Below the pieces are notes generated by a model. The model saw only the letters and a program-made list of their open reading frames with translations, searched no databases and was not told the origin of the DNA. From IMG/VR virus record IMGVR_UViG_3300021431_000083: a DNA stretch of 64,000 nt; one strand, written 5' to 3'. This document shows positions 15,666 to 33,583 of this stretch, in pieces (the stretch's first letter is position 1; each line of letters opens with the position of its first letter). The stretch comes from a virus. Its lineage: Duplodnaviria; Heunggongvirae; Uroviricota; Caudoviricetes. The position numbers were made by a program, and so were the translations under genes.

Positions 15666-16601
15666 TTACGAAGTCGCCGTCTTTGTATCCTCGTTCATCA
15701 GAAACATTAGTGGTAAAAAATTCTGAACACTGTTTCCATTCTGGCCATTCATTAACATAGCCATAAGCATCATCTGCATAGAGGGAGAAGAGGATGATAG
15801 ACCACCAAGACCAGGATTCTCCTTGTTCATTAGCATAAGAACTAAAGGGAGTGCATCATTACTCTTACCATCATTATTTCCCAAAAGAAGGAAAGGTAGC
15901 ATATTTCCAAACGGATTATCTTCGTTTGCGGTCGATGCTGTAAAATCTACAAGACTTACAATCTTAGTAATAAAATCAAAACCAAAAATTGACTTTGTAG
16001 GAAGAATTTTCTTAATCTCACCATCTGTTACATCAATAACAGAAATAGTCTTTCCTCTTGCCTTTGTAACAAACATAACATGACGATTATGGATAATTGC
16101 ATCACCTTCAGCTACGTCTTTAATAGCAACAGGCATCATATAAACAAAATTGTCACAACCAAAATTAATTAAATCAACATTAACAATTTCGTTGTTTTCT
16201 TTATCATAAGACACCCATTCACCATTACTATTCTGCACCGCAATACCAAGATGTGAAATCTTAGCACGATCGCCGCACGGACCAAAATTAAAATTCTTCA
16301 TAATATTCATTTTTTTATTCTCTTTCTCTTGGTTTTCTTTTAATTCATGAATAAATCTAATGTCATCTGAAGTTATCTCTTCTCCATCCAGAACAAGTTT
16401 ATTAGAAGTTGAACAAATATTGGGTTTTAAATTAATATTGTTTCCACTAATACTAAATCCATTTCCTTTAATTCCATCTTTATCAATAGTAATTTTAGGA
16501 TTAGAAGATGTTGTAGTTGTAACTGATGGATTATAATTTCAATTTGCAGTAATATTGTCCCAATAATAATTTGTAGTATCTGTAGTATAATTACTTATCA
16601 T
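15666..16601 (-). CDS. hypothetical protein, 311 aa, needs code 4 (one in-frame TGA near 16549)
   Basis: ATG at 16601 with AGGAGGA RBS. Hand translation MISNYTTDTTNYYWDNITANW(TGA)NYNPS... runs in frame into the track ORF 15666..16310. Confidence 0.5.
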
Positions 16602-16702: not shown

Positions 16703-16796
16703 TGCGGAAGATGCAAGATTTGAACTTGCACTAGAATTCTCGTCCTAGGCTACGCATTAGCAGTGCGACACTTTACCATTCAGTCAATCTTCCATA
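16703..16796 (-). tRNA. tRNA-Ser(GCU), type II with a long variable arm
   Basis: Acceptor GGAAGAT/ATCTTCC. Anticodon loop CTGCTAA. T-arm GCAAG-TTCAAAT-CTTGC. Confidence 0.6.
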
Positions 16797-17100
16797 GAAA
16801 ATATCGCGGGTGGCGCCTTTACGCACTTTATCAGGACTCGCAACCTGCCGCTGGAAAACCCGCTTCTTTTGGTTCACCGGAGAAGCTCTTTGCCTATGAT
16901 TACAAACCGGTTTATAATATTCTCGGAGGGTCTACCATTTACACCCTAACTCGCTTACCGAGTTCGCATGAGCTTCAGCATTCAATTAGATCTGTCACCA
17001 TCTTTATGGCGCTTTCTTTATACCACTTATCATGTGGCTGCGGTGACTAGTACGCATTTAGGAAAAGAAAGCATAAGAAAACCCTCCTACTCAGTAATTA

Positions 17101-17175
17101 TATAGTCTGGAGTCGAACCAGTGTCTCTCTGGGCATAACCATAAGCGCTCTACCGTTAAGCTATCTCTATAACAC
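17101..17175 (-). ncRNA. tRNA-like element (D-arm GCTTAACGGTAGAGC, T-loop TTCGACT). No canonical acceptor or anticodon pairing found by hand.
   Basis: Partial cloverleaf only. May be a pseudo-tRNA, a split tRNA, or part of a larger structured RNA. Confidence 0.3.
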
Positions 17176-17400
17176 CTTTCGTTCGCTACTTACCCCGTCG
17201 GACTTTCGCTACACACCTAGGTTTTATTAATGTGTCTGCAGGTGTATTAGACACTCCAGCAGCTTTTTACGTCTTCACTTTATTTGGACAGCTACCTTCC
17301 GCAGTAGTATGGCGACATGACTTTCGTTGAAGAGGACTGCCGCAAGCGAACATTATACACCAATGATTTTTATCTTCCTGGTTCCATCACCCTTCACAGA

Positions 17401-17470
17401 CAGCCAGATTGGACTCGAACCAATACCCTAGCCCTTGCGGGCCGATGCTGACCAATTACACCACCAGCTA
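17401..17470 (-). ncRNA. tRNA-like element: acceptor with G-U pairs, T-arm ATTGG-TTCGAGT-CCAAT, but a GCCC-GCAA-GGGC GNRA hairpin where the anticodon arm should be
   Basis: 70 nt. Not a standard tRNA. Confidence 0.3.
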
Positions 17471-17871
17471 TCTCCAGTTTACTTTCACCTGTGCTATGAA
17501 TGTTTTTAGAGCGCCATTATTTCTATAGCGGAGGCCAGTGGTACAAACATCATAACCATATCTTCCCGCTTGATAGTTTAGTTTGAAAGGACTATCAACC
17601 TTATGTGAGAATGGAAAACCCATCTCTTTCGCACTTCGTTTTAGAAAACGAATAATTAAACATTCTTACCTTCGACTTAGGTTTACTCGGTACGTGCCTT
17701 CTCGTTGTATCCCGACCAATTCCTGTGGTAGCTACTCCACACTCACGTTTTTCGCTATGGGTACCTCTTCCCCACCCGCGTCTAGGCCGTCTCTCTGAGC
17801 AGTTTCTGCAGTCATACTCTCAGTTGATATTGGCGAGAATGTTTAACTTTCCCTTTTCTTTATATATATAT

Positions 17872-17912
17872 TATAACATATTTTTTATTCAGTTGTCAAG
17901 TTTTATTTTAAG
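17872..17912 (-). promoter_or_regulatory. consensus promoter module (approximate). It points into the noncoding island and tRNA-Ser.
   Basis: atatattataacatattttttattcagttgtcaa. Confidence 0.45.
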
Positions 17913-17992
17913 GCTTGGTTATTTTTCCCTTTAAACTAACCGCCCTTCTACAGGACAGTGACTGATTCGAACAATCATCTCCCTTACCTTAT

Positions 17993-18030
17993 ATATATAT
18001 TATAGCATAAAAATTGAACAATCGTCAACA
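17993..18030 (-). promoter_or_regulatory. consensus promoter module (approximate), in tandem with the previous one
   Basis: atatattatagcataaaaattgaacaatcgtcaa. Confidence 0.45.
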
Positions 18031-18113
18031 AATATTTTTAAACAAGTCTTGCCGCGCTTAAACGATCAGCCCACAAGAGGACCGAGCCTGAGTCGAACAG
18101 GCATTTGTTTATA

Positions 18114-18740
18114 TTACCAAGCTACATAATAATCAGTAATACCTTCATTACAACCACTATCAGATACAATACAAGTACCTTTACTACCTTCAAAAGTAGT
18201 ACCTTGCGGCATATCACTAGCCGCAACTACATAATATCCTTCGTCAGTACGATAGAATCCTTCATCATCTACTGTCCATTGGTCAGTATCTTGATGATAA
18301 AGAACATTAGATGAATAATATGTTTCTGTGCGGCCATCATAATAGTTAACGCCAGACTCTTGAGTTAAACCAGTACCATCACTATATTCTTGACCTTGAG
18401 TAACAACATCAGCAGGTTCTTCTTGAATAGTATCAACAGACTCTTCTTGAACATCAATATCAACAGATTCTTCTTGAATAGGCTCTGTTGATATTTCTTG
18501 AACGGGGTCTGCCGCAACTTCTGATACTGTTGTTTCTACTTTTGGAACACTATATTTTTTAGCTTTCTCCAAGAGATCAACCATATCTTTATTTGTTACT
18601 GTTCGCGGTTCAGCAATATCTTCTATATTTGAAAACTCAATTTTAGCTTTCTCTTGGACAATCTTTTGCGGTGAAGAGACACAGCCAATGTTGAACACAC
18701 ATAACACAATCAAACTTATAATGATGATTCGTTGCTTCAT
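18114..18740 (-). CDS. putative lipoprotein (signal peptide plus lipobox NIGC)
   Basis: N-term MKQRIIIISLIVLCVFNIGCVSSP. Acidic low-complexity central region. Confidence 0.55.
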   Translation of the reverse strand: MKQRIIIISLIVLCVFNIGCVSSPQKIVQEKAKIEFSNIEDIAEPRTVTNKDMVDLLEKAKKYSVPKVETTVSEVAADPVQEISTEPIQEESVDIDVQEESVDTIQEEPADVVTQGQEYSDGTGLTQESGVNYYDGRTETYYSSNVLYHQDTDQWTVDDEGFYRTDEGYYVVAASDMPQGTTFEGSKGTCIVSDSGCNEGITDYYVAW

Positions 18741-19783: not shown

Positions 19784-20284
19784 TTATGCCCATTTCGTAG
19801 TATCATAAACATAACTCATTAAACCTGATTGATCGGTATGATCTTTTGAAACAAGTAAGTAACCATCCCAAGGAGCTTGTTGTGCAACATTTTCATATGG
19901 TGTTGGTGTATTATTATAAATAATAAGTTCGCCTTCAACATCTTCTGTTGTATTTCTAACATCAACAGGACAAAACATTGCACGAAAACGAGTACCTACA
20001 TTTTTTCCAAGACTGATAAAATATCTATGCCCGCTTTGAATTTTATAAATATCGGTATAAGTATTTGATAAGTCTTGATATACCCACTGAGAATTATTCT
20101 CGATGTAGCCACCTTTGTAATCACGTTCAACTGGAAAAAGTGCCATTGTTGTATTTATACCAATTACTTTTTCTCCATTAGCGCCATATGCGGTAACACC
20201 CTTCAACATTTGTTCTTCTGAAACTGTAGCATCTGTTAAATCAACGAGTACTTGATCTCCATAATAAACTTTATTTACTTTCAT
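19784..20284 (-). CDS. hypothetical protein (166 aa)
   Basis: Intact ORF. Confidence 0.5.
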   Translation of the reverse strand: MKVNKVYYGDQVLVDLTDATVSEEQMLKGVTAYGANGEKVIGINTTMALFPVERDYKGGYIENNSQWVYQDLSNTYTDIYKIQSGHRYFISLGKNVGTRFRAMFCPVDVRNTTEDVEGELIIYNNTPTPYENVAQQAPWDGYLLVSKDHTDQSGLMSYVYDTTKWA

Positions 20285-20288
20285 GATA

Positions 20289-20582
20289 TTATCCTATCTT
20301 AATGGTAATGCCGCCAGCTTCATTAAAGGTCTTTTGATAAGGAATACCTTCTACAATAACTCTGGATAAATAGTTATATTCTTTATCTGGGGTAACCGTT
20401 TGTTTTAAGATAGACGATGTTATTGTTTTAATTTGTGTTTTAATAGAATCTGAAGGTACACTAATTAATTCTTTATTAACTAAACCTAAATTACCCTCTA
20501 AATTTTGTAGTCGTGTTATTGAACCATTTAAAGACTTGGCATCATTAAGATAACCAGTTAAATTAATTTTATTTAAACTCAT
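20289..20582 (-). CDS. hypothetical protein (97 aa)
   Basis: Intact ORF. Confidence 0.45.
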   Translation of the reverse strand: MSLNKINLTGYLNDAKSLNGSITRLQNLEGNLGLVNKELISVPSDSIKTQIKTITSSILKQTVTPDKEYNYLSRVIVEGIPYQKTFNEAGGITIKIG

Positions 20583-20583
20583 T

Positions 20584-20931
20584 TTAATTTACCTCTGGAG
20601 TTAATGTGAATATACCAGAAATGAAAGTATCCACAGTACCATCTTCTTTTGTAAGTTCAATTTCATAAACATATCGTCCAAAAGCAAGATTCTTTGTTTC
20701 TGCGGATTCTAGTCTTAAAATAAGAGTATCATTCGGAATCATCTTTAAAATTAATGGTTCTTTATCGAGATACCGTTCTCTTTTACTGTCCATAGTATTG
20801 TGCTTTAAAGCAAAATAGATTATATCCCCAGAATCAGGAATATAATCACTACCATCTTGTTTAATATTTACTTGTACAATTAAAGTGTCTCCACGAGTAA
20901 GACTAATATTATTATTTTCAATAGTGTACAT
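20584..20931 (-). CDS. hypothetical protein. Start moved to the internal Met (MYTIENNN) to avoid overlap with tRNA-Arg.
   Basis: The track ORF 20584..20961 overlaps the tRNA. Confidence 0.4.
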   Translation of the reverse strand: MYTIENNNISLTRGDTLIVQVNIKQDGSDYIPDSGDIIYFALKHNTMDSKRERYLDKEPLILKMIPNDTLILRLESAETKNLAFGRYVYEIELTKEDGTVDTFISGIFTLTPEVN

Positions 20932-20950
20932 TTTACCTACCTTAATTGAC

Positions 20951-21027
20951 TGGCACCGCATATAGGACTTGAACCTATAACAAAGTAGTTTAGAAGACTA
21001 CGGCTCTTCCTCTTGAGCTAATGCGGC
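20951..21027 (-). tRNA. tRNA-Arg(UCU)
   Basis: Acceptor GCCGCAT/ATGCGGT. D-arm GCTC-AAGAGGAA-GAGC. Anticodon arm GTAGT-CTTCTAA-ACTAC. CCA encoded. Confidence 0.65.
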
Positions 21028-21036
21028 TTATTATAT

Positions 21037-21113
21037 GGCACCCGCAGTCCGAATCGAACAGACGCCTTCTTGATTTGGAGTCAAGCTATACTTCCAATTA
21101 TACGACACGGATG
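21037..21113 (-). tRNA. tRNA-Trp(CCA). The 5' side is irregular and the acceptor needs three G-U pairs.
   Basis: Anticodon arm CTTGA-CTCCAAA-TCAAG. T-arm GTCTG-TTCGATT-CGGAC. CCA encoded. Confidence 0.5.
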
Positions 21114-21121
21114 TTTATTGT

Positions 21122-21197
21122 TTGGTACCGAGCATGGGCCACGATCCCACATCTCCGACATTAAGAGTGTCGCGCTTTGCCAATTAAGCTAACTCGG
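21122..21197 (-). tRNA. tRNA-Lys(CUU)
   Basis: Acceptor ACCGAGT/GCTCGGT. Anticodon arm CGACA-CTCTTAA-TGTCG. Unusual T-loop ATCGTGG. Confidence 0.55.
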
Positions 21198-21200
21198 TAT

Positions 21201-21464
21201 TGGTTGCCTGGACGGGATTTGAACCCGCAACTAATGGATTACATACCACTACTATTTTCATAGCCATTTCGTTTGTGGTCTGGACTTTATCTTCACCATA
21301 TTTTAAAACTTAGGCGGCTCGTGTAAAGTCTCTACACACGGTTTCCCTTGCTCGGTATTACCATTTTACAGGTTTCACCGACTTAGCGAGCTTATTCACT
21401 TATAAGTTTCCTTATAAGGCTTCCAATCGAAAGTCCACTACGCTTCCGTTGCGTCACCAGGCAA
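21201..21464 (-). tRNA. split tRNA gene, probably tRNA-Lys(UUU). 5' exon about 21432-21464, 3' exon about 21201-21241, separated by an intron-like insertion of about 190 nt in the anticodon loop.
   Basis: 5' half: TGCCTGG-TG-ACGC-AACGGAA-GCGT-A-GTGGA-CTTT. 3' half: TAA-TCCAT-TAGTT-GCGGG-TTCAAAT-CCCGT-CCAGGCA-A-CCA. Acceptor and anticodon stems pair only across the insertion. Confidence 0.5.
21242..21431 (-). other. putative group I intron in a tRNA anticodon loop
   Basis: The 5' exon ends in U and the insertion ends in G before the 3' exon. It contains AAGATAAAGTCC, close to the group I P7/S element AAGATATAGTCC, plus GGGAAACC and GACTTTA elements. Confidence 0.45.
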
Positions 21465-21950
21465 TATCTTATCAAAATCATAATCTTTAAAAAATTTTAT
21501 CCCTGAAGTTTGTCCATTTTTAGTTGGTTCAATCCTTAAAGAAATAGTTTGACAACTACCAATATCTTTAATTGGTACTAGAGCAATTATATCTCTATTT
21601 TGATTATAAAATACAAAATAATCTACATCTTTTTCATAAGTATCTAAAGACTTATTTGTAGTATGATTTTTAGAACTTCTACAATAGCATCTAATACTTC
21701 CATTAGCTTCTTCATTTGCGGTTTTTACTTGGATACGATTTAGTTTACCACCAAATTCAGCAATCATATCATAACGTTCATTGTCTCCTCAAGGAAGAGC
21801 TACTGGAATATTACGACGTTGAAATTCAAATAACGCTTTAGCTTCAGAAATATTACCTTTAGTTTTACTATTCATAATTACCACACTTTCTCCACACTCA
21901 CTAATAACCGACCAAACAGGTGGTGTGGATTCACTTTTCAATAAGCTCAT
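21438..21950 (-). CDS. PD-(D/E)XK nuclease-like protein, 170 aa, needs code 4 (one TGA). Its 3' end overlaps the tRNA 5' exon.
   Basis: Motif ALPW(TGA)GDNERYDMIAEFGGKLNRIQVK (D ... E-x-K). Lies between tRNA-Asn and the split tRNA. Confidence 0.45.
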
Positions 21951-21982
21951 GACTTCTTATCTATTTTGGTCGGATATTTAAC

Positions 21983-22058
21983 ATGGCTCCCAGTACTGGA
22001 TTCGAACCAGTATAACGACATTAACAGTGTCGCGTCCTGCCGTTGAACGAACCGGGAA
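21983..22058 (-). tRNA. tRNA-Asn(GUU)
   Basis: Acceptor TCCCGGT/ACTGGGA. D-arm GTTC-AACGGCA-GGAC. Anticodon arm CGACA-CTGTTAA-TGTCG. T-arm ACTGG-TTCGAAT-CCAGT. CCA encoded. Confidence 0.65.
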
Positions 22059-22098
22059 TAAAACTAAAGTCTTTCTGGACTTTATTAAACAAGCATAT

Positions 22099-22183
22099 AG
22101 CTACCCTGTGTCGCGGGGGTCGGATTCGAACCGACGTTGATGCCGACTTATGAGGACGGTGAGTAACCACTACTCCACCCCGC
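22099..22183 (-). tRNA. tRNA-Met or Ile2 (anticodon CAU)
   Basis: Acceptor CGCGGGG/CCCCGCG. Anticodon loop CTCATAA. T-arm GTCGG-TTCGAAT-CCGAC. Slightly long variable region. Confidence 0.5.
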
Positions 22184-22194
22184 GTCACGAGGTG

Positions 22195-22407
22195 CTAATC
22201 ATCATCATAATTAAAATAATCTTCTGGATGCAATAAATAATCTATATATTCACTTGCTTCTTCATATGTATCAAAACTACCTATAACTCGAAATCTTGGA
22301 GAATATATGTCATGAATACTGCGGACAGTATAACAGCCACAATAAAAACCATTAATTTGTTCATCACAAACAATATATTCTTTAAGCATGTTATTTCCTT
22401 TTAACAT
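22195..22407 (-). CDS. hypothetical protein (70 aa)
   Basis: Intact ORF with a consensus promoter upstream at about 22405-22448. Confidence 0.45.
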   Translation of the reverse strand: MLKGNNMLKEYIVCDEQINGFYCGCYTVRSIHDIYSPRFRVIGSFDTYEEASEYIDYLLHPEDYFNYDDD

Positions 22408-22409
22408 TT

Positions 22410-22445
22410 ATATTATATCATATTAGCTTAACAATAGTCAAGTTA
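22410..22445 (-). promoter_or_regulatory. consensus promoter module (TTGACT, 18-nt spacer, TATAAT)
   Basis: Read on the minus strand. Confidence 0.5.
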
Positions 22446-22449
22446 ATTT

Positions 22450-22812
22450 TTATTCATTATAAGTATAAGTTACTTTTTCAGGAATCCATAAATATGGCCA
22501 TCCAATAAAATCGTCTAAAGTAACAACAATAAAGAAATCTTTTCCAACTTCTTTACACAATTGCGGTAAAATTACACTATGCATGTAATGATAATGTTCA
22601 CTTTTTTCTTCTTCACTCATATTAAAAAAATTACTGTCTATATCATATTCAAAATAATCTTCGTCATAGTATTTTCCGCCATGCCATGCTTTAAAACGCA
22701 TATATGGAATTTTAACAGTAACTAACATAATTCTCCTTTGGTCGCGGAGGGTGCTAAATATATTGCCATTTATATCCATAAGCAGTTTTTCTTTTTCCTC
22801 TACACACTCCAC
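22450..22812 (-). CDS. hypothetical protein (120 aa); start uncertain because it overlaps the next gene
   Basis: Intact ORF. Confidence 0.4.
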   Translation of the reverse strand: MECVEEKEKLLMDINGNIFSTLRDQRRIMLVTVKIPYMRFKAWHGGKYYDEDYFEYDIDSNFFNMSEEEKSEHYHYMHSVILPQLCKEVGKDFFIVVTLDDFIGWPYLWIPEKVTYTYNE

Positions 22813-23365
22813 TTATATGAGAACTACTATCAGGTTTATTAATAAATCTCGCAGCTTCTCTCGTAGATTTAAAAGTTTTTATAATCTCATTTGTTTTTAT
22901 ATCAATCATCGCAACAGCTTTCTGCTGCTGTTCTTGAACAGAAGGAATCAGAACATTAAATTCTTTACAAGCAGTTCTAACAGTATTTTTAGAACAATTA
23001 AAATAATCTTGGACCTTTTTTGAGTTTTTTAATTCTTTCATTTTATTTGCTATAGCTTCATAATCATAATAGCGTCTACTATCTCCACCTAAAGTAGCGT
23101 TATATCCATTATTATAAGTATCTAATTTTTGAATCCAATATTGTTCACGTTCATTTAGATCTTTTTCATCACATTCTTCTAATTTATTAATAATGAAATT
23201 ATCTACTCCATATTTATTTAAAGCTCTACAAATCGGTCTAGTTTGATTTTGTTTATATTTAGCATCATGTTGATGCATCTGCCATCTGCGATGAATAGAT
23301 TGACAAGTTTGTCCCACATACTGTTTTTTATTTATTTTATTCGTTATAACATAAATAAAACCCAT
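22754..23365 (-). CDS. GIY-YIG homing endonuclease (I-TevI-like)
   Basis: N-term GFIYVITNKINKKQYVGQT (GIY ... YVG). Basic C-terminal DNA-binding region. Sits directly beside the tRNA cluster. Confidence 0.6.
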   Translation of the reverse strand: MGFIYVITNKINKKQYVGQTCQSIHRRWQMHQHDAKYKQNQTRPICRALNKYGVDNFIINKLEECDEKDLNEREQYWIQKLDTYNNGYNATLGGDSRRYYDYEAIANKMKELKNSKKVQDYFNCSKNTVRTACKEFNVLIPSVQEQQQKAVAMIDIKTNEIIKTFKSTREAARFINKPDSSSHISGVCRGKRKTAYGYKWQYI

Positions 23366-23423
23366 CTCTTCTCCAAATTCTTATTATAACAAAAGTATCA
23401 TCACTTTTGGAGGTAGTGTCTAT

Positions 23424-23499
23424 GGTATCAGCAGCGGGCTACGATCCCGCGTTTCTACCTTGAAAGGGTAGTGTCCTAGTCCAACTAGACGATGCCGAC
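23424..23499 (-). tRNA. tRNA-Glu(UUC)
   Basis: Acceptor GTCGGCA/TGCTGAT with G-U pairs. Anticodon arm CTACC-CTTTCAA-GGTAG. T-arm GCGGG-ATCGTAG-CCCGC. CCA encoded. Confidence 0.55.
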
Positions 23500-23502
23500 A
23501 TT

Positions 23503-23575
23503 GGTCGCTATGGAAGGTAACGCTCCTCCGTCTTGGCGTTATCAGCACCCTGCTCTACTTTTGAGCTACATAGCG
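23503..23575 (-). tRNA. tRNA-Ile(GAU)
   Basis: Acceptor CGCTATG/CATAGCG. D-arm GCTC-AAAAGTA-GAGC. Anticodon loop CTGATAA. Unusual T-loop AGCGTTA. Confidence 0.5.
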
Positions 23576-23576
23576 T

Positions 23577-23651
23577 TGGCTTCCTCTTCAGGACTCGAAC
23601 CTAAACTAAGGGCACCAAAAACCCTTGTGCTACCAATTACACCAAGAGGAA
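23577..23651 (-). tRNA. tRNA-Gln(UUG)
   Basis: Acceptor TTCCTCT/AGAGGAA. Anticodon arm AGGGT-TTTTGGT-GCCCT. T-arm TTAGG-TTCGAGT-CCTGA. Confidence 0.55.
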
Positions 23652-23708
23652 ATATCAGATATTAGTATTAACCATTACGAACCACGTGGAGGTTTCTGAT
23701 TCTCGTAA

Positions 23709-23794
23709 CTACGGATGGTGGGACTCGAACCCACAAACCTTGCGGCAACGGATTTTGAGTCCGTCGTGTTTGCCAATTTCACCACACCCGCACT
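23709..23794 (-). tRNA. tRNA-Leu(CAA), type II
   Basis: Acceptor GCGGGTG/CATCCGT. Anticodon arm ACGGA-CTCAAAA-TCCGT. Long variable arm. T-arm GTGGG-TTCGAGT-CCCAC. Confidence 0.55.
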
Positions 23795-23988
23795 TAAGAT
23801 TCAATTAATTTAAATTGAGTTGTATAATAAGTACCGCAATGGTCACATTGACCACTACCATACTTTAATTCAAAAGAAGCACCACACTTAGGACAAGTTA
23901 TAGGATATACTTCTACAATTTCACATTTAAGAGCATATGTTTTACCACCAAAAGAAATTTTACTTATATATCCATCAACTTGTTCCAT
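23794..23988 (-). CDS. small zinc-ribbon protein (CPKCG ... CDHCG). Start moved to the internal Met (MEQVDGY) to avoid the tRNA.
   Basis: The track ORF 23794..24045 runs into tRNA-Met. Confidence 0.4.
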   Translation of the reverse strand: MEQVDGYISKISFGGKTYALKCEIVEVYPITCPKCGASFELKYGSGQCDHCGTYYTTQFKLIES

Positions 23989-24011
23989 ATGTAATCCTTT
24001 ATATAGTGAGA

Positions 24012-24086
24012 TGGTGCGGGAGACAGGAGTTGAACCTGCTTCCAATCGATTATGAGTCGAGTGCTCTACCGTTGAGCTTCTCCCGC
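24012..24086 (-). tRNA. tRNA-Met (CAU), second copy; possibly the initiator or elongator partner of the first
   Basis: Acceptor GCGGGAG/CTCCCGC. D-arm GCTC-AACGGTA-GAGC. Anticodon loop CTCATAA. T-arm CAGG-TTCAACT-CCTG. Confidence 0.55.
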
Positions 24087-24087
24087 A

Positions 24088-24175
24088 TGGTCCCGCGTCT
24101 AGGTAACGCTCCTAGCCAGCATTAAAGCAACAGTTTTACAGACTGCCCCGTGTCTTTAACGGAATACCGCGGGAT
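24088..24175 (-). tRNA. tRNA-Tyr(GUA), type II
   Basis: Anticodon arm GCAGT-CTGTAAA-ACTGT. 14-nt variable arm. T-arm CTAGG-AGCGTTA-CCTAG. CCA encoded. Confidence 0.45.
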
Positions 24176-24176
24176 A

Positions 24177-24251
24177 TGGCCAGGCGTACGGGAATCGAAC
24201 CCGTGATAATGGTTAGACAGACCATTGTGATAACCGCTTCACTAACGCCCG
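24177..24251 (-). tRNA. tRNA-Asp(GUC)
   Basis: Acceptor CGGGCGT/ACGCCTG. D-arm GTGA-AGCGGTTA-TCAC. Anticodon arm ATGGT-CTGTCTA-ACCAT. T-arm ACGGG-TTCGATT-CCCGT. Confidence 0.65.
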
Positions 24252-24253
24252 AC

Positions 24254-24329
24254 TGGAGCTGGCGACAGGAATCGAACCCGCAACCTAGTGATTACAAATC
24301 ACTTGCGCTACCTATTGCGCCACGCCAGC
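24254..24329 (-). tRNA. tRNA-Thr(UGU)
   Basis: Acceptor GCTGGCG/CGCCAGC. D-arm GCGC-AATAGGTA-GCGC. Anticodon arm AGTGA-TTTGTAA-TCACT. T-arm GCGGG-TTCGATT-CCTGT. Confidence 0.65.
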
Positions 24330-25619
24330 AAAATAAAAGCGTTGGGTAAGGTGTAACGCGACCACCGCATGTAAAATTATTTTATGTCTAATCGACATGC
24401 TCGCAAAGACAGTAGGATTGCTCCTTTTGGAAGATATATCTATTATGGCTGATATGACTTTAAATATATATAAATATATCCTCCAAAAGAAGATACTTTC
24501 ATAGGAACCACCCTCATCGTAGAGAAAGTATAAACTACAGAAGGTTCTAACGCTCTTAACCTACAAGCGATCTTTACTTTACGCATAGACTTGCGGCAAG
24601 ATCATTACCCTATCCTGCATGGGATGTACTTGATTTCGTTCAAACACATAAAGACGGAAATCATTTTGGTTCAGGTGATTTCAAAACCAGAAAACCACAA
24701 TTTTATTTTATAGTCTAATTGGTTCATACTAGACTGGCATTAAGTACGCCTAAGAAAACATTTTATAAATGTTCTCTAAGGCATAAACTGTTTATCAGTT
24801 ATTTCAGCCCTTTAAGCTACACTAGAGAGTATGTTAGGCTACTCTCTTTTTATATACCCTGCCTAACCAGAGACGCCGTTTTATTTAATGACGCGAACGG
24901 ACTAGGAACTTGGTAATCACCTTACGGTATCCGCCATTTTCCATACCACTTAATTTCTTAAGGGCTATTACGTCAATTCCTTCAAACAGAATAGTTGAAG
25001 ATATACATGCCAGCCTTCGCTGTACCGCATCTATTTACTGGATATTCGATCACGCAGGAGATAAGGCTGAGTATGTCGGAGCGACCGTCATACTTCTTAC
25101 CCCAGCCGTTAAGGCCATCTCTACTGTAGGAGTGATTACCTACAACTTTCACACGTCATTCAGCATTAATATATTCTCCTAAATATTCATTGATATAAGG
25201 AGCTGCTTTGTGCTACTCGAACCTTGCTCTTGTCTTATTCTTTCTGTTACCAGAAAGTCAACAGCTCAATCTCCTTATTGGTATTTCCAGCTTTCTCTTA
25301 TTCAGCACCACCTGTTAATAAGTGTTCTGGATTCTTCCCCACTGGGGCGTCTATTGCGGAGACGACAATTTGCAAGTATCTTTCCTTAGCAAATAGACTA
25401 AGCGCATTCTTCATTTTGTTGGTAGTTCCTACCTTCTAAAGCAAACCTCACGATTCACCTTAAAGCCACACAGCCAAGTATCCCAGACTGTATAAACTCA
25501 TTGAGAAGAACCCTCAGCACGTTGACACCGCTCTGCACTGAGTTGCACCTAAATCTTCAACTATTCTGTTTTCAAAGTTCTTAGGTTAAGAAACCTAATA
25601 TTAACTCTCTCAACCTTAT

Positions 25620-25662
25620 ATATTTATTATATCATATTTTCTTTTCAATTGTCAAGAAAAAT
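25620..25662 (-). promoter_or_regulatory. consensus promoter module, 1 of 3 in tandem, pointing into the 24.3-25.6 kb noncoding island and the tRNA cluster
   Basis: tatttattatatcatattttcttttcaattgtcaa. Confidence 0.45.
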
Positions 25663-25797
25663 TTTTAAACTAGTTTTTTAGTAATTTTATTCACGTGTTA
25701 TTACATTGAACTACTAGCAAACCGTTTTTAGCACGAGGACCACTCCGTGTTTTTTAGATGGTGTACGTCTTCCCTGGCCTGTTCCCATCATATCTTA

Positions 25798-25842
25798 TAT
25801 ATATATTATATCATATTTATAAAACCATTGTCAATAAAAATT
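25798..25842 (-). promoter_or_regulatory. consensus promoter module, 2 of 3 in tandem
   Basis: atatattatatcatatttataaaaccattgtcaa. Confidence 0.45.
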
Positions 25843-25925
25843 TTTAACAGCTGAAAGATTTTAAATCTTTCTTATTTTATATAAAAACTGAAAAACTTTT
25901 TTTATCCCCTTTTGATAAATATATT

Positions 25926-25962
25926 ATATCATATTTTCTTTGCGGCCGTCAATAAAAACTTT
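25926..25962 (-). promoter_or_regulatory. consensus promoter module, 3 of 3 in tandem
   Basis: atatattatatcatattttctttgcggccgtcaa. Confidence 0.45.
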
Positions 25963-25971
25963 TAGTTACAT

Positions 25972-26544
25972 TCATTCAAATTCAAATTTACATTGTATAT
26001 AATACCATTTAATATCCTCAATAATGGCATCTATATTTACAGGACAACAATCATGAGCATCAACCGCAACGTTATAAGATTGCCATCCTCTATCCATAAA
26101 CTCATATCTATTTTGAGAATGAGTATGACCATGAAGATTCCAAACACGAGCTCTTAAAGGCTTATCATAATCATCATAATTTGCGGTTAACGTAGGATAA
26201 TGCGATAAAAGAAAATGCCATTTCTTATATTTAAGCATTCCAGAATATCCAAAACCTTCAACTAAACTAGGTAAATCCCAATACAATTGTTTTCTAACAT
26301 CACTATCATGATTGCCCCAAAAGACATGTAGCTTGCCATTGAGCCGCCGCAAACAATTTAAACCATGTTCATTATCACCAAGCATCTGATCACCCAAGAG
26401 AAAGAGATCATCATCAGGCCGCACAATACTATTAAATCTTTCAATGATTGCTTCATCATGCTTTTGGATATTAGAAAATCCTCGCGGCTTATAGATAAAA
26501 TCTCTGTCATGACCGAAGTGTAAATCTGAACAAACATATAACAT
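25972..26544 (-). CDS. calcineurin-like metallophosphoesterase
   Basis: Motifs DLHFGHD, GDQMLGD, GNHD, GHTH. Confidence 0.6.
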   Translation of the reverse strand: MLYVCSDLHFGHDRDFIYKPRGFSNIQKHDEAIIERFNSIVRPDDDLFLLGDQMLGDNEHGLNCLRRLNGKLHVFWGNHDSDVRKQLYWDLPSLVEGFGYSGMLKYKKWHFLLSHYPTLTANYDDYDKPLRARVWNLHGHTHSQNRYEFMDRGWQSYNVAVDAHDCCPVNIDAIIEDIKWYYIQCKFEFE

Positions 26545-27039
26545 TTAATCTACCCTCCAGACATAATCAAAACCTTCGCTATCCTCAACAGGCTGATATG
26601 CTTCAATCATGCGGTTCATAGCATCAGCAGGGACGACTCTATCACGTTTCTTATTACGATAAACAGCATCCAACATTGATGTATTCATCTGAACCGCAAT
26701 AAATTTACAATCTAAATCTTTAAGGTGATTGCGGCATTTGCGACGAGATTTCTTGGTCAGATGTGTTGCATCAAGAATTACATCACTACCATTTTTGATA
26801 GCTTCACGAGCACGCTCATAAAAAATATCAAAAACAACACCATTAAGAGATTGATTACTGGCATCACCGCAAAGCTCTTCACGAATATCATCAGAAGAGA
26901 TATAGACTCGACTGCGCCAAGGATGATCCATCAATACGTTCTTACAAAAATAACTCTTTCCGCTGCCAGGCACGCCGCACATAATGTATACAACAGGCTT
27001 ACGCAGTTGACGACGAATACCCTCATCACATTGAGTCAT
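26545..27039 (-). CDS. P-loop kinase (polynucleotide or nucleotide kinase-like)
   Basis: Walker A GVPGSGKS. Adjacent to a phosphoesterase and a ligase. Confidence 0.55.
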   Translation of the reverse strand: MTQCDEGIRRQLRKPVVYIMCGVPGSGKSYFCKNVLMDHPWRSRVYISSDDIREELCGDASNQSLNGVVFDIFYERAREAIKNGSDVILDATHLTKKSRRKCRNHLKDLDCKFIAVQMNTSMLDAVYRNKKRDRVVPADAMNRMIEAYQPVEDSEGFDYVWRVD

Positions 27040-27061
27040 ATATCTCTCCTTTCTTTCAACA

Positions 27062-27098
27062 ATAATATTATAACATAATTATATTATAGCTGTCAACT
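27062..27098 (-). promoter_or_regulatory. consensus promoter module (approximate)
   Basis: aatattataacataattatattatagctgtcaa. Confidence 0.4.
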
Positions 27099-28362
27099 AA
27101 GAGTTCATAACTTGCGTTAATTCGATATAATCAATCATATCTCCGTACTTAACACCACGGAAATAATCAACCTTCTGGCCTAAGAATTTAGCACGTACTG
27201 CTCCTTGATACCGCTTAGGCACAACTTTATCAACAGCAATCATAAAAGTCTTGCGATCATCAGTATAATCTACGAAATCACGAGTAAGATTATACCACTT
27301 CATAACACGTTCATCGAACATTTGTACGTACTTATAAACATTATCAGCCTTTTCCTTAGCTTGCGGTTGATATGCAACAGGAATCTTTGAATAAAAATCA
27401 TCCCAACGACCTTCACGAATAGCTGCAATTATAGCGTTGGGAGAAACCATCTTACAAAGAGCATGGTGGAGCATAACATAATCATTATACTTGAGCTTAT
27501 ACTTCTGTCCGTCTACATCAATAACATATCCCTCACCCTCATTAGCCTTACGACCATCATTAAGGGCATCCTGATAAGCTTCTTCAAAAGTCATATCAAA
27601 AATTTTAACATGCGGCACATCATACTTTTCTGCGACTTCTACAACATCCTTATAAGGTAGTTCTACACCATCCTCTACTCGTCGCATTCCAAGTAAATGC
27701 AAACCGAACATTTGTTCGTTATATTGTACAACATGAACATCATCAGGGAAAATACCTTCAAAAATGAAAGTATAATCTCGATAATCCTTTACCATCTGTA
27801 CAGCATTATTATGACTAAACATCCAATGATAATAATTAGCAAGACGATAAGACATATTGGTATCAAGAGCTTGTGACCCAGACATTACCAAATCATTCTT
27901 ATACCAACGAGCACTACAAAGAGAACCGTCAAGCTTATCAGTAATTTCTACTCGGGCCGCATTCTCTATCTTCTCTTGGACTATAGGAAGCTGAGTCTCT
28001 TCTCGCTCATTAATATTAAAGAATTTGCGGAATGGAGTAAGAATAAGACAATCATTAAGTACATCAATTACAACTGAACGACACTCACGATAAAAACCAT
28101 CATAAGCATCCCAGTCAATATCAAGATCATTATACTTAATAAGTAGCATACCCATGCTTTCATTGAGAAGCAAGGGTTCAATCATCTTAGAATAATAATG
28201 ACGCTTAGGATGACCATGATTTCCGAGAGTCCATACCCAATAGGAAAGACAATTAGTAAAGGAATCATCGCGGCCATACTGCCACAAAGCATCCTTGCCG
28301 CACACCTTAACAAATTCATTCTTTACTTCAGTGAAAAAATCTAAAGGTTGATTCCAAGACAT
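27097..28362 (-). CDS. ATP-dependent RNA ligase (Rnl1-like)
   Basis: Motif I KLDGS (T4 Rnl1 has KEDGS). Motif IV EGYVI. Motif V KLK. Confidence 0.55.
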   Translation of the reverse strand: MSWNQPLDFFTEVKNEFVKVCGKDALWQYGRDDSFTNCLSYWVWTLGNHGHPKRHYYSKMIEPLLLNESMGMLLIKYNDLDIDWDAYDGFYRECRSVVIDVLNDCLILTPFRKFFNINEREETQLPIVQEKIENAARVEITDKLDGSLCSARWYKNDLVMSGSQALDTNMSYRLANYYHWMFSHNNAVQMVKDYRDYTFIFEGIFPDDVHVVQYNEQMFGLHLLGMRRVEDGVELPYKDVVEVAEKYDVPHVKIFDMTFEEAYQDALNDGRKANEGEGYVIDVDGQKYKLKYNDYVMLHHALCKMVSPNAIIAAIREGRWDDFYSKIPVAYQPQAKEKADNVYKYVQMFDERVMKWYNLTRDFVDYTDDRKTFMIAVDKVVPKRYQGAVRAKFLGQKVDYFRGVKYGDMIDYIELTQVMNS

Positions 28363-28371
28363 ATTTACCTC

Positions 28372-28868
28372 TTATTCATTAAGTTTCTTTAAACCGTCTG
28401 AAGCATCATACCCTGATGAATCAGCTAATTTAACTTTTCCTTGATAATGATATTGCGGCTTCTGCGGACGTGTATTATATCTCCACCATTCTGAACCATC
28501 ATATTCCGCACGAGACAGCCATGATCCATCATTAAAACAAATGACTAAATCTACTGCAACTTCTTCACTACCATATCCACAATAGTAATTAGTATCTTTC
28601 GCGGCTTCTTTGAATTGTTCAGTGCTAATATAGAAATCATGTCCACCAATCCAAGAAACATCCTCCCAAGTTTTATTATGATAAAATAAAACATGTTCGG
28701 TCTCTTCAAGAAGATTAATCTCGCTCACAGTTTCTCCAATCAGTCTTATATTTTTCTTTGCGGCTATACTTATTTTTTCCATGTGCACCATGTCCGCACA
28801 TCCAACCATTATAGTGCGGTTTTTGTGCATTCCAAATAATTTTAGGATCAATAGTAATAGACCCATGA
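28372..28868 (-). CDS. hypothetical protein. The real start is probably internal: the N-terminal LFLCYNIFI of the track ORF is a translated promoter.
   Basis: The track ORF is 28372..28941. Confidence 0.4.
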
Positions 28869-28904
28869 TACTTCTTTTTGGACATACTATCTCCCCTTTC
28901 CTTA

Positions 28905-28942
28905 TAAATATATTATAACATAAAAATAAGGTAGCTGACAAG
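28905..28942 (-). promoter_or_regulatory. consensus promoter module (TTGTCA, 18-nt spacer, TATAAT)
   Basis: Read on the minus strand. Confidence 0.45.
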
Positions 28943-28967
28943 AGCTACCTTATAACAAGTATAATAA

Positions 28968-29297
28968 TTATTTAAGTGATTTTCCGCACATAGGACAAAA
29001 CTGAATTTCAGTTTTACCTACACCATCAGGAGTACCAAACCGCAGATATCCCTTTGGATCAACATAAATAAATATATCTTTATCATAATAAAGATCAACG
29101 CCATCTTTATTGCCGCAATAAGGACAATCTAACTCTTCTAAAACTGGAATGTCCCAACAAATATCTCGCTTTAATACACTAGGTTTTGGTGTCCATTTAT
29201 AAAGATTTTCTACATATACAGGAGTTTCTTTACGTTCCAAAGTAAGACGGTCCATTACATCCACCATATCTTTCATGTCCTTTCTCGTCGTATACAT
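28968..29297 (-). CDS. zinc-ribbon protein (CPYCGN ... CPMCG)
   Basis: Intact ORF. Confidence 0.45.
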   Translation of the reverse strand: MYTTRKDMKDMVDVMDRLTLERKETPVYVENLYKWTPKPSVLKRDICWDIPVLEELDCPYCGNKDGVDLYYDKDIFIYVDPKGYLRFGTPDGVGKTEIQFCPMCGKSLK

Positions 29298-29417
29298 GCC
29301 ATCGCATCCAGCTACGTTTATTTAATTTACACCATTTTTTAGCAGTATCCAAATCAAAAAACCATGACACATAATGATAACAAAGATCATCATCATATAC
29401 TACTTTATAAATATTCA

Positions 29418-30344: not shown

Positions 30345-30540
30345 TGCAACTCCTTAGAAGAGATCGTCATAGGCGTCCATCATTTCAACATACTGCTCTT
30401 CATAATCCCTATCATCAATCCAATCATTTTCATTTATGTCCCAGGGTTCTGCGGTGGCCATATTTGAAAACAAATCAGATTCAAAATCATAGATATGATC
30501 ATCGCCGCATACGTAATCTTCACAATCCATTACATTCTCC

Positions 30541-30876: not shown

Positions 30877-30894
30877 CATACTTCTCCTTCCTCT

Positions 30895-30935
30895 TATAAA
30901 TATATTATAGCATAAAAATAATGCGACTGGCAAGA
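30895..30935 (-). promoter_or_regulatory. consensus promoter module (approximate)
   Basis: aatatattatagcataaaaataatgcgactggcaa. Confidence 0.45.
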
Positions 30936-31011
30936 AAAATCTTACTACAGCCGCACAGGATATTATTTTACATATATGTAATATTATAGATTTTATTACG
31001 AATAAGTAATA

Positions 31012-33148: not shown

Positions 33149-33583
33149 CTAAAAAATCCTTTCAGATGCAAAACCATCATTTGTTGAATAAAGAATATTT
33201 CGTATACCCTTATCTCGCAAAGCTTTCATACAACCAGCACAAGGTCTTGCCAATCCCATGTGTAGTTTCTTACCATTACAAATGCGGAAAATATATACCT
33301 TAACCTTACTCCAATCAATAGATTCTTGTATGGGATAAGGTATAGATTTCAATGCTGCAATTTCCGCATGAACACTATGTTTTATAGGTTGCTTGCTGCA
33401 CTTATTAAATTTACGTTCTTTATTATATTTTTTTTGAAGTGGATCTGTCTTATCAGAATTAGCACCACGGCCAATAATACGACCTTTATAAACAATAATG
33501 CATCCAAGATGAAAACGTGCAAAATCACTGTGCAATGCTTCTTGACGAGCCAATTCAAAAAACCTATAATCTTTCTTATTCAT
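33149..33583 (-). CDS. dCMP/cytidine deaminase family zinc-dependent deaminase
   Basis: HAE ... PCAGC zinc-binding signature. Confidence 0.6.
   Translation of the reverse strand: MNKKDYRFFELARQEALHSDFARFHLGCIIVYKGRIIGRGANSDKTDPLQKKYNKERKFNKCSKQPIKHSVHAEIAALKSIPYPIQESIDWSKVKVYIFRICNGKKLHMGLARPCAGCMKALRDKGIRNILYSTNDGFASERIF

Follow-up and report, generated by a model that had tools for sequence, protein, structure and literature searches.

A tRNA(UCA) gene outside the tRNA island of a TGA-recoded sheep-rumen phage

In the 64,000-nucleotide stretch of phage DNA analysed here (IMG/VR record IMGVR_UViG_3300021431_000083; hereafter the window), a large array of tRNA genes includes tRNA-Trp(CCA), and TGA appears to be used as a tryptophan codon. 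A sequence-only reading of the window had therefore expected a tRNA with anticodon UCA, but did not locate one. The question raised by this locus is which tRNA reads UGA, and where its gene is found.

TGA codons in the late genes

When TGA is read as sense, the longest stop-free stretch in the window increases from 720 to 2920 codons. The largest genes form a single block:

37875-63551, minus: late tail-gene block (1130, 2857, 1245 and 2917 aa; stop-free reading; Pfam PhageMin_Tail on the 2857-aa product)

These four genes contain 93 in-frame TGA codons, compared to 22 TGG codons. In ortholog alignments, the codon opposite TGA was TGA in 108 cases, TGG in 10–12 and TAT in four, while that opposite TGG was TGG in 57 cases, TGA in 12 and another codon in one. 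TGA is exchanged almost solely with TGG, and therefore encodes tryptophan, as the sequence-only reading had presumed. In the endolysin gene, which has 13 TGA and 3 TGG codons, a GH25 alignment placed one TGA on the conserved Trp of the YPxW motif, two on Phe, and several on non-aromatic residues, e.g., V, I and N.

In-frame TGA is concentrated in the late genes (tail, head and lysis). Dozens of other genes use TGG only; in those for replication and RNA repair, TGA is absent and as many as 10 TGG codons occur. The phage is AT-rich (30–38% GC). Its use of TGA agrees with that of gut phages already known to be TGA-recoded.

The tRNA island and its split tRNA-Lys gene

ARAGORN with default settings identified 13 tRNA genes in the window, on the minus strand, and Rfam gave 14 tRNA matches above the gathering score of 29 bits, the gain being tRNA-Ile(GAU), matched at 23505–23575. 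With the ARAGORN intron mode and a relaxed cloverleaf scan included, the following features were found:

16704-16793, minus: tRNA-Ser(GCU), type II (ARAGORN; Rfam tRNA, 59.7 bits)
20951-21027, minus: tRNA-Arg(UCU) (ARAGORN; Rfam, 56.3 bits)
21036-21112, minus: tRNA-Trp(CCA) (ARAGORN; Rfam, 38.7 bits)
21123-21198, minus: tRNA-Lys(CUU), T-loop ATCGTGG (ARAGORN; Rfam, 49.3 bits; T-loop from cloverleaf scan)
21201-21241, minus: tRNA-Lys(UUU) 3' exon, encoded CCA (ARAGORN intron mode; joined exons)
21242-21429, minus: group I intron, 188 nt (Rfam Intron_gpI, 46.3 bits)
21430-21463, minus: tRNA-Lys(UUU) 5' exon, 3' end GGACUUU (ARAGORN intron mode)
21438-21875, minus: PD-(D/E)XK (PDDEXK_5) endonuclease gene, 145 aa (Pfam PF11645 on ENA gene calls)
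21984-22057, minus: tRNA-Asn(GUU) (ARAGORN; Rfam)
22110-22184, minus: tRNA with anticodon CAU, Met type (ARAGORN; Rfam)
22754-23365, minus: GIY-YIG homing endonuclease gene, 203 aa, amid the tRNA genes (NCBIfam TIGR01453)
23423-23499, minus: tRNA-Glu(UUC), T-loop ATCGTAG (ARAGORN; Rfam; cloverleaf scan)
23502-23575, minus: tRNA-Ile(GAU), T-loop AGCGTTA (Rfam, 48.6 bits; ARAGORN at lowered threshold only; cloverleaf scan)
23577-23651, minus: tRNA-Gln(UUG) (ARAGORN; Rfam)
23709-23792, minus: tRNA-Leu(CAA), type II (ARAGORN; Rfam)
24012-24086, minus: tRNA with anticodon CAU, Met type (ARAGORN; Rfam)
24088-24173, minus: tRNA-Tyr(GUA), type II, T-loop AGCGTTA (relaxed cloverleaf scan, score 19, loop CTGTAAA)
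24177-24251, minus: tRNA-Asp(GUC) (ARAGORN; Rfam)
24254-24329, minus: tRNA-Thr(UGU) (ARAGORN; Rfam)
24991-25566, minus: ROOL RNA, adjoining the tRNA array (Rfam RF03087, full length, 334.5 bits; gathering score 99.1)

Every tRNA named in the sequence-only reading was recovered by one or another of these searches, and the non-canonical T-loops that it had noted were seen again in the cloverleaf scan. Its range of 20951–24329 holds for the tRNAs other than Ser-GCU, which lies outside it. tRNA-Tyr(GUA) was missed by both ARAGORN and Rfam, but the cloverleaf scan placed it at 24092–24173 with a score in the range of true tRNAs, and it has C1-G72, A73 and an encoded CCA. Together, 20951–24329 and 16704–16793 constitute a genuine phage tRNA gene island of 16 tRNA genes, all on the minus strand, one of them interrupted by a group I intron, with the ROOL RNA, homing endonuclease genes and RNA-repair genes at its flanks.

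The interrupted gene is the split Lys-UUU candidate, which proved to be real: once joined, the exons within 21201–21463 yield a clean tRNA-Lys(ttt). The intron separates positions 35 and 36 of the anticodon loop and contains no ORF. With E = 5.9e-11 for a 291-nt query, its Rfam match falls just below the Intron_gpI gathering score of 50. In P1, the last exon U forms a U-G pair, and the final intron base is G. Group I introns are known in bacterial tRNA anticodon loops, for example that of cyanobacterial tRNA-Leu(UAA), which is likewise small, with a U-G pair in P1, a terminal G and exons that join into a normal tRNA. The present intron differs in its location in a phage tRNA-Lys(UUU), its 35/36 insertion, its 188-nt length without an ORF and its score just below the gathering threshold. 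The PDDEXK_5 gene, which has one in-frame TGA, shares 26 nt at its 3' end with the tRNA-Lys(UUU) 5' exon. The 203-aa product scored 104 bits with TIGR01453 (group I intron endonuclease; cutoff 56).

Candidate readers of UGA

No UCA-anticodon tRNA was found in the window by ARAGORN with default settings, or in 16000–64000 by Rfam with E-value thresholds. The relaxed cloverleaf scan of the window returned only two U33-UCA candidates, at 31144–31225 (plus strand, score 17.5) and 16199–16287 (minus strand, score 15), both of which lie within ORFs and score below the 18.5 reached by the background. A ‘SeC(tca)’ with a 73-nt intron, reported by ARAGORN at a lowered threshold at +39318–39487, is inside the 2917-aa ORF and was treated as spurious. 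The three methods agree for the window with the earlier observation that none of the resolved tRNAs carries a UCA anticodon. It had been suggested that the expected tRNA might sit in one of three unresolved elements (17101–17175, 17401–17470 and 34380–34460), but none of these has a normal anticodon loop. Two of them correspond to the following features:

17097-17172, minus: degenerate tRNA-like element (Rfam tRNA, 27.1 bits, gathering score 29; ARAGORN at lowered threshold only)
17399-17470, minus: tRNA-like element (ARAGORN ‘tRNA-??? (ca)’; Rfam tRNA, 31.2 bits)

The element at 17097–17172 was rejected as a UGA decoder on account of its 8-nt ‘anticodon’ loop (GUUAUGCC, containing UAUG) and mismatched acceptor stem; it has no encoded CCA and belongs to a stretch without alignment to a relative, L021. 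The element at 17399–17470, not a UGA decoder either, also lacks an encoded CCA and is conserved in L021; its anticodon arm consists of a 5-bp stem closed by a GCAA tetraloop (alternatively by 6 nt, CGCAAG). At 34399–34645, a tRNA-like frame with ≈150 nt inserted has the loop AACACAA, and was likewise rejected.

The other location that had been proposed, outside the window, was the correct one. The window shares stretches of 100% identity with a 140,415-bp scaffold from sheep rumen (ENA scaffold_115), at three loci and over 11,382, 4,860 and 20,951 nt. The same scaffold contains a 97-nt tRNA gene with the expected UCA anticodon, located at 10758–10854 of locus L146 (scaffold_115 positions 78,487–98,987), ≈30.5 kb beyond position 1 of the window. 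It shares its strand with the genes of the window. The window thus lacks a UGA reader because the phage encodes this tRNA some 30 kb away. The tRNA(UCA) gene is flanked by its own sigma-70-type promoter and terminator, and a holin-like gene and the endolysin gene lie directly downstream. Identical copies were found in six more contigs from the same and related samples, and diverged copies in relatives, including a 64,792-bp IMG/VR contig that has the Trp-CCA array as well. The remaining genome, surveyed in the same strain or in relatives at least 96% identical, yielded no further tRNA; ≈9.7 kb of the window's strain was covered through relatives ≈96% identical.

The tRNA(UCA) has A1-U72, G3-C70, G5-C68, G73 and the anticodon loop CUUCAAA, in agreement with the Trp identity elements given in PMC9976931. 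It also has a long variable arm, an unusual extra arm that in most relatives comprises a covarying stem and the invariant loop GUCCAAA. This loop resembles the tryptophan anticodon loop, as if copied from it, and the arm may act as a decoy anticodon. Aminoacyl-tRNA synthetases are known to recognise anticodon-arm mimics; in the E. coli thrS mRNA operator, for example, a hairpin outside the real anticodon arm similarly has the same anticodon-loop sequence as the matching tRNA. Unlike the operator, the putative mimic is the variable arm within the tRNA itself, and would aid charging rather than repress translation.

The best explanation, to which we assign a probability of about 0.8, is that the window holds a genuine tRNA island without a UGA reader and that the ≈140-kb phage reads UGA as Trp with the separate tRNA(UCA). 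The 93 in-frame TGA codons of the tail block are codons for this off-window tRNA to read. Early, replication and tRNA-region genes appear to be written for the standard code (TGG, without in-frame TGA), while the late tail, head and lysis genes with in-frame TGA would be completed only after synthesis of the suppressor tRNA and its charging, for which the host TrpRS is the presumed enzyme. We infer that tRNA(UCA) is expressed, that it is charged with Trp and that it has a role in timing.

Alternative readings and comparison with known phages

Could tRNA-Trp(CCA) itself be the main UGA reader, either through Hirsh-type near-cognate reading or through editing or modification of C34, possibly by a nearby deaminase-fold protein? 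This tRNA has A1-U72, G73, an encoded CCA, the loop CUCCAAA and three G-U pairs in its acceptor stem. The gene is kept in diverged relatives, with compensatory acceptor-stem changes in one of them (L020), and the tRNA has C9 and a U11-A24 pair. The changes A9C and G24A of the Hirsh-type suppressor reportedly let E. coli tRNA-Trp read UGA; U11-A24, however, is the normal state of B. subtilis tRNA-Trp. In three IMG/VR relatives the anticodon arm is the same, always CCA, and no UCA variant of this tRNA was found in IMG/VR. A 144-aa cytidine/dCMP deaminase-fold protein is encoded at 33583..33149 (Pfam, 40.2 bits), but it matched neither an NCBIfam model nor a solved structure, so that nothing connects it with tRNA. 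The anticodon stem of tRNA-Trp(CCA) is 5 bp, not the 4-bp form that reportedly reads UGA (PMC13092985). Given the dedicated tRNA(UCA) in the same genome, a modified tRNA-Trp(CCA) or a host factor, as had alternatively been proposed, is no longer needed to account for UGA decoding, and we consider tRNA-Trp(CCA) a very unlikely main reader.

If the host used genetic code 4, like Mycoplasmatota, and so read UGA as Trp on its own, the phage would follow the code of its host without any phage-driven code switch. Such a host would fit the AT-richness of the phage, the TGA-to-Trp assignment, which is that of code 4, and a crude motif search that found no phage TrpRS or release factor. It is nevertheless improbable, since a uniform code 4 would not lead one to expect the sharp limitation of in-frame TGA to late genes, and the phage retains its own tRNA(UCA) beside the lysis cassette. 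Furthermore, Enterococcus and Staphylococcus, the hosts of the nearest cultured relatives, are standard-code genera, and the phage promoters have the consensus TTGACA/TATAAT. It is highly improbable that tRNA(UCA) is instead a selenocysteine tRNA or a serine-accepting allo-tRNA, with UGA read as Sec or Ser, or at a few sites only. ARAGORN labels it tRNA-SeC, its best Rfam match is tRNA-Sec (RF01852), and SerRS uses a long variable arm and G73 as identity elements (PMC5389517; PMC9976931). It shares these two features and the UCA anticodon with tRNA-Sec and the allo-tRNAs (PMC5389517), and in the window's strain it can be drawn with an 8/4 arrangement of acceptor and T stems and a 6-bp anticodon stem. 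The Rfam score of 42 bits, however, is below the gathering score of 47, the D-arm is ordinary (3–4-bp stem and 7–9-nt loop, not 6-bp stem and 4-nt loop), most relatives have the ordinary 7/5 fold, and the amino acid is apparently Trp: over 100 sense TGA codons exchange with TGG, whereas no exchange with a Ser or Cys codon was seen. Neither SelA nor SelB is among the annotated genes.

Several known systems resemble this phage in part. The tRNA array lies beside genes for an Rnl1-family RNA ligase (TIGR02308, 63 bits, below the model cutoff) and a Pnkp-like P-loop kinase, reminiscent of the T4 tRNA cluster with its RnlA and Pnkp repair, as well as a second RNA ligase and a metallophosphatase (putative repair genes). 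The identity to T4-type RnlA is ≈25%, T4 has no stop-codon recoding, and the repair role here is putative. TGA-recoded (code 4) gut and rumen phages, such as the Agate and Jade clades of Borges et al. (bioRxiv 10.1101/2021.08.26.457843), are similar in their low GC, TGA as Trp in structural and lysis genes, standard-coded replication genes and a recoded homing endonuclease gene, and TGA-recoded phages in that study have the same layout, including a suppressor tRNA gene immediately before the lysis cassette. Here, in contrast, the crude motif search found no phage TrpRS or RF1, and the suppressor tRNA, of 97 nt, has a long variable arm.

The structural genes of the ≈140-kb phage are SPbeta-like and Phassvirus-like, and the closest GenBank phage by major capsid protein (44% identity) is phAss-1 (proposed Phassvirus, OQ749652). 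In phAss-1, the recoded stop is TAG rather than TGA and is read as Gln rather than Trp, by anticodon CUA; the variable-arm loop is CUGA (containing CUG) rather than GUCCAAA, and two short suppressor tRNAs are also present. The two phages are nonetheless alike in genome size (136 kb in phAss-1; PMC10607447), in their large tRNA sets (36 genes in phAss-1), in stop-codon recoding in virion genes without a phage aaRS, and in a long-armed suppressor tRNA, which in phAss-1 adjoins the NrdD and NrdG genes.

Probable reassignment of TGA to tryptophan

The longest stop-free stretch grows from 720 to 2920 codons once TGA is counted as a sense codon. All genes in the window are on the minus strand. The four large tail genes (63551 to 37875) contain 93 in-frame TGA codons vs. 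22 TGG. From 34202 to 9903, TGA is absent from most genes, and these have several TGG codons. In alignments of diverged orthologs, the codon opposite TGA was TGA 108 times, TGG 10–12 times, TAT four times, and others once or a few times each. Opposite TGG, the codon was TGG 57 times, TGA 12 times and another codon once. No exchange between TGA and Ser, Gly or Cys codons was seen in these alignments. Such a pattern is as expected if TGA and TGG are synonymous, and Gly, Ser and Cys do not fit; TGA as Gly (code 25) or Ser was therefore set aside. In the GH25 domain of the endolysin, the conserved YPxW Trp coincides with a TGA, two further TGA codons coincide with Phe, and the others are at variable positions. 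The premise that TGA is read as Trp thus held up, by the in-frame TGA codons in intact late genes, the TGA/TGG exchange and the conserved GH25 Trp.

A 192-codon ORF at 25966-26544 (minus strand) has its sole TGA at codon 191, two codons ahead of a TAA, and this gene may truly end at the TGA under the standard code. By a crude motif search, neither a release-factor gene nor a gene for TrpRS was found; because of the latter, charging presumably occurs via the host TrpRS.

tRNA genes and tRNA-like elements of the window

ARAGORN with default settings found 13 tRNA genes in the window. Fourteen regions, scoring 31–69 bits, reached the gathering score of the bacterial-type tRNA model (Rfam RF00005; 29 bits), including an element at 17399-17470 (31.2 bits) with a tetraloop; another element, at 17097-17172, fell below it at 27.1 bits. 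In a purpose-written, relaxed cloverleaf scan, true tRNAs scored 19–20.5 and the background up to 18.5, with one outlier at 19.0 that had non-tRNA loops. Taken together with the intron mode of ARAGORN, these searches bore out the 16 tRNAs listed in the sequence-only reading, as well as the three odd T-loop sequences (ATCGTGG, ATCGTAG and AGCGTTA) remarked on there. All 16 have a 7-nt anticodon loop with U33 on a 5-bp stem. Two of them took extra steps to detect:

23502-23575, minus strand: tRNA-Ile(GAU), T-loop AGCGTTA; found by ARAGORN only with a lowered threshold
24088-24173, minus strand: tRNA-Tyr(GUA), T-loop AGCGTTA; missed by ARAGORN and without an RF00005 match; cloverleaf-scan score 19

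Four tRNAs on the minus strand (21123-21198, 23423-23499, 23502-23575 and 24088-24173) combine A54 with U58, the reverse of the usual T54-A58 pair, in the T-loops ATCGTGG, ATCGTAG and, twice, AGCGTTA; three of the four are kept in the relatives L021 and L022. Directly upstream of the tRNA array, between it and the RNA ligase and kinase genes, is a full-length ROOL RNA (24991-25566, minus strand), which matched Rfam RF03087 over model positions 1–574 with 334.5 bits (gathering score, 99.1). Megablast of window 20000-26000 gave no match among GenBank phages.

A split candidate for tRNA-Lys(UUU) turned out to be real. The intron mode of ARAGORN placed the tRNA frame at 21201-21463, and joining the exons 21463..21430 and 21241..21201 yields a 75-nt tRNA-Lys(ttt) with an encoded CCA. 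The full-length group I intron model (Rfam RF00028) aligned to 21265-21441 with 46.3 bits (E = 5.9e-11, 291-nt query), a near miss just under the gathering score of 50 bits. The last exon U is opposite a G in P1, which forms the U-G pair of the 5' splice site, and the terminal base of the intron (...GGUAUG) is G. Because of these two features and the joining of the exons into tRNA-Lys, we kept the group I assignment despite the near miss. A PDDEXK_5 endonuclease ORF with one in-frame TGA (21875..21438, minus strand) lies upstream of the tRNA, outside the intron, and overlaps the 5' exon by 26 nt (21438-21463).

No tRNA with a U33-UCA loop rose above background in the window, using ARAGORN with default settings, Rfam in E-value mode over 16000-64000 and the cloverleaf scan. 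Three tRNA-like elements had previously been left open as possible UCA tRNAs, but their anticodon loops are abnormal and they are not decoders. The element at 17399-17470 has good acceptor, D and T arms; however, its anticodon arm is a 5-bp stem capped by GCAA (or a 6-nt loop) and CCA is absent. In the one at 17097-17172, the loop is 8 nt long and the acceptor stem is mismatched; the stretch containing it could not be aligned to L021. In the third (34399-34645), ≈150 nt are inserted between tRNA-like ends, and the loop, AACACAA, has A at position 33. With a lowered threshold, ARAGORN also reported 'SeC(tca)' (+39318-39487), 'Stop(tta)' (17952-18277), 'Glu' (11490-11611) and 'Met' (+36111-36220), all of which were rejected, as they need a long intron and lie partly or wholly within ORFs.

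Conserved non-coding stretches, neither of which matched an Rfam family, surround these elements:

16794-18113, minus strand: ≈1.3 kb, with consensus promoters (TTGACA/TATAAT) at two sites, near 18030 and 17900
34203-34855, minus strand: 650 nt with its own promoter

The former is GC-rich, structured-looking and 88% identical in L021, and contains the tetraloop element together with several T-arm-like hairpins. This stretch may encode a large, new RNA whose processing signal is the tRNA-like element. The tRNA-like frame in the latter is made up of the acceptor GACATAT/TTATGTT, the arm AACCC-AACACAA-GGGTT and the T-arm GCAGG-TTCAAAT-CCTGC, interrupted by ≈150 nt.

Location of the probable suppressor tRNA in the ≈140-kb genome

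Proteins from the window were matched exactly on sheep-rumen assemblies (JGI 3300002641, SRR8735xx and the ENA re-assemblies SHIW14-1). Two scaffolds, of 140,415 bp (ENA scaffold_115) and 140,903 bp (scaffold_118, a separate assembly of the same phage), have the same gene order and different start points, which would be expected if the ≈140-kb genome is circular or has terminal redundancy. Three loci of the former, 37 kb in total, are 100% identical to the window, which therefore represents 64 kb of this genome. The 140,903-bp scaffold starts at the equivalent of about window position 21052, inside tRNA-Trp(CCA); a possible cause of this break is a repeat there, or an end of the genome. Window positions 1-200 have a GC content of 54.5%, compared to ≈30% nearby, and are part of a 122-aa gene with GC-rich codon usage; since this gene is present in all assemblies of the phage, the segment is not an assembly chimera.

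The remaining 76 kb were covered stepwise via IMG/VR and metagenome loci, followed by look-up of protein cluster members. In IMG/VR, no relative turned up for a 228-aa early protein, and one match to the tRNA pattern (L143) proved spurious. No tRNA was found in the 10 kb on either side of the window, in the terminase region, or in the replication module (gyrase-like, ligase, ThyX-like, ATPase, DnaB, RecJ-like and Pol III alpha genes), which was searched in contigs 100% and 96% identical. A 97-nt tRNA with anticodon UCA is present in four relatives, ten kilobases past Pol III alpha; via the cluster members of a neighboring 166-aa protein, it was then located on the scaffold of the window itself, within 78,487-98,987 (locus L146):

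89,244-89,340 of the 140,415-bp scaffold (L146 10758-10854), same strand as the window genes: tRNA(UCA), ≈30.5 kb beyond window position 1

A UCA tRNA, possibly outside the window, had been expected, and this was confirmed: the tRNA is on the same scaffold and absent from the window. Identical copies occur in six other contigs from these samples, and an anticodon-stem variant in one more. For ≈9.7 kb of the genome, the sequence came from relatives ≈96% identical to the window strain rather than from the strain itself, and these have no further tRNA there. Neither form of tRNA(UCA) had a match among GenBank phages. A scan of GTDB with the tRNA pattern gave no lead to a host or prophage, returning four chance matches that are not tRNAs by ARAGORN.

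At this locus, a promoter (TTGACG-N17-TAAAAT) is followed by a 57-codon ORF, the tRNA, and a hairpin with a T-run that looks like a terminator. Past the hairpin are a 167-aa membrane protein with one TGA and the GH25 endolysin (557 aa; 13 TGA vs. 3 TGG). Only 2 nt separate the end of the 57-codon ORF (L146 10540-10757) from the tRNA gene, with which it shares the promoter. The ORF has one in-frame TGA and a strong ribosome-binding site, is conserved in the relative L124, and could act as a suppression-sensing leader.

That tRNA-Trp(CCA) might read UGA, either in the Hirsh manner or after editing, was also considered, and set aside once tRNA(UCA) had been found. In the relatives, tRNA-Trp(CCA) has an unchanged anticodon arm and compensatory changes in the acceptor stem. 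It is a conserved tRNA, apparently a functional one, and most simply serves the TGG codons still common in early genes. In Hirsh-type tRNA-Trp(CCA), A24 or C9 is the D-arm change by which CCA comes to read UGA; with its C9 and U11-A24, the tRNA here leaves some near-cognate reading of UGA possible, but nothing requires it. Beside the tRNA island is a cluster of four RNA-repair-type genes, accompanied by the gene for a deaminase-fold protein (26545-33583, minus strand):

Within 26545-33583, minus strand: Rnl1-family RNA ligase, 421 aa
Within 26545-33583, minus strand: second RNA ligase, 308 aa
Within 26545-33583, minus strand: Pnkp/PSTK-like kinase, 164 aa
Within 26545-33583, minus strand: metallophosphatase, 242 aa
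Within 26545-33583, minus strand: divergent protein with a cytidine/dCMP deaminase fold, 144 aa

The deaminase had no match in NCBIfam or the PDB, and was set aside as a tRNA editor.

Structure of the probable suppressor tRNA and comparison with known systems

ARAGORN labelled tRNA(UCA) as tRNA-SeC, and its best Rfam model was tRNA-Sec (RF01852), with 42.0 bits, below the gathering score of 47. The acceptor/T domain, however, is 12 bp long (8/4 in the window strain and 7/5 in most relatives), rather than the 13 bp (8/5) of tRNA-Sec, and the D-stem has 3–4 bp with a 7–9-nt loop, rather than 6 bp with a 4-nt loop. An 8/4 or 9/3 arrangement with a Sec-like D-arm is found in allo-tRNAs (PMC5389517); the tRNA(UCA) of the window strain is drawn as 8/4, whereas the relatives are 7/5 and the D-arm is not Sec-like. 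The 8/4 drawing comes from ARAGORN and the minimum-energy fold. The acceptor stem of the copy in the relative L141 is AGGGGCG, as in E. coli tRNA-Trp. The acceptor end of tRNA(UCA) has A1-U72, G3-C70, G5-C68 and G73, which are bacterial Trp identity elements (PMC9976931).

In six diverged copies, the variable arm forms a covarying stem of 6–7 bp that is 97.6% paired, vs. 59.6% in shuffles, with compensatory changes at six of the seven pairs. The 7-nt loop, GUCCAAA, is invariant in these copies; the anticodon loop of the phage's own tRNA-Trp is CUCCAAA. The search pattern that yielded two of the six copies had the GUCCAAA loop as a fixed part, so these two are no independent evidence; the other four were reached via neighboring proteins and are unbiased. 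The variable arm of the window strain has a 5-bp stem and a 10-nt loop containing CUCCACA.

We propose, with a probability of about 0.4, that the long variable arm may be a decoy anticodon arm for the host TrpRS. The arm would present U-CCA-A, the cognate Trp anticodon-loop sequence, to the synthetase, while the true anticodon, UCA, would read the stop codon. A standard-code host synthetase could then charge the stop-codon reader efficiently, and no phage-encoded synthetase would be needed. If true, this would be a new way to uncouple decoding by a tRNA from its recognition by the synthetase, would explain how a phage can switch the genetic code of a standard-code host without bringing a synthetase, and would offer a natural design for engineered suppressor tRNAs. 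No description of a decoy-anticodon variable arm was found in the literature searched.

The recoding system is of an already known kind, and its layout is like that of the TGA-recoded gut phages of Borges and colleagues; the structure of the suppressor tRNA is a variant for which we could not find a description in the literature searched. In that study, only 35% of TGA-recoded phages yielded a TGA suppressor, a shortfall that the authors suspected to be due to non-canonical tRNAs (bioRxiv 10.1101/2021.08.26.457843). The suppressor tRNA described here is easily missed: its gene belongs to another genome module than the tRNA island, and the tools label it as a selenocysteine tRNA.

The structural proteins match the SPbeta families YonB, YonD, YomU, YomV and YomW. 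By capsid protein, the nearest GenBank phage is phAss-1 (44% identity), a 136-kb gut phage recoded from TAG to Gln, and Enterococcus phages are next (33%). phAss-1 encodes a 91-nt tRNA(CUA) with the long variable arm TCCCT-CUGA-AGGGG, the loop of which contains CUG, a Gln anticodon; the chance of a given triplet in a 4–6-nt loop is about 3–6%. Like the suppressor tRNA here, the tRNA(CUA) of phAss-1 is located beside NrdD and NrdG genes, at a similar position in the genome.
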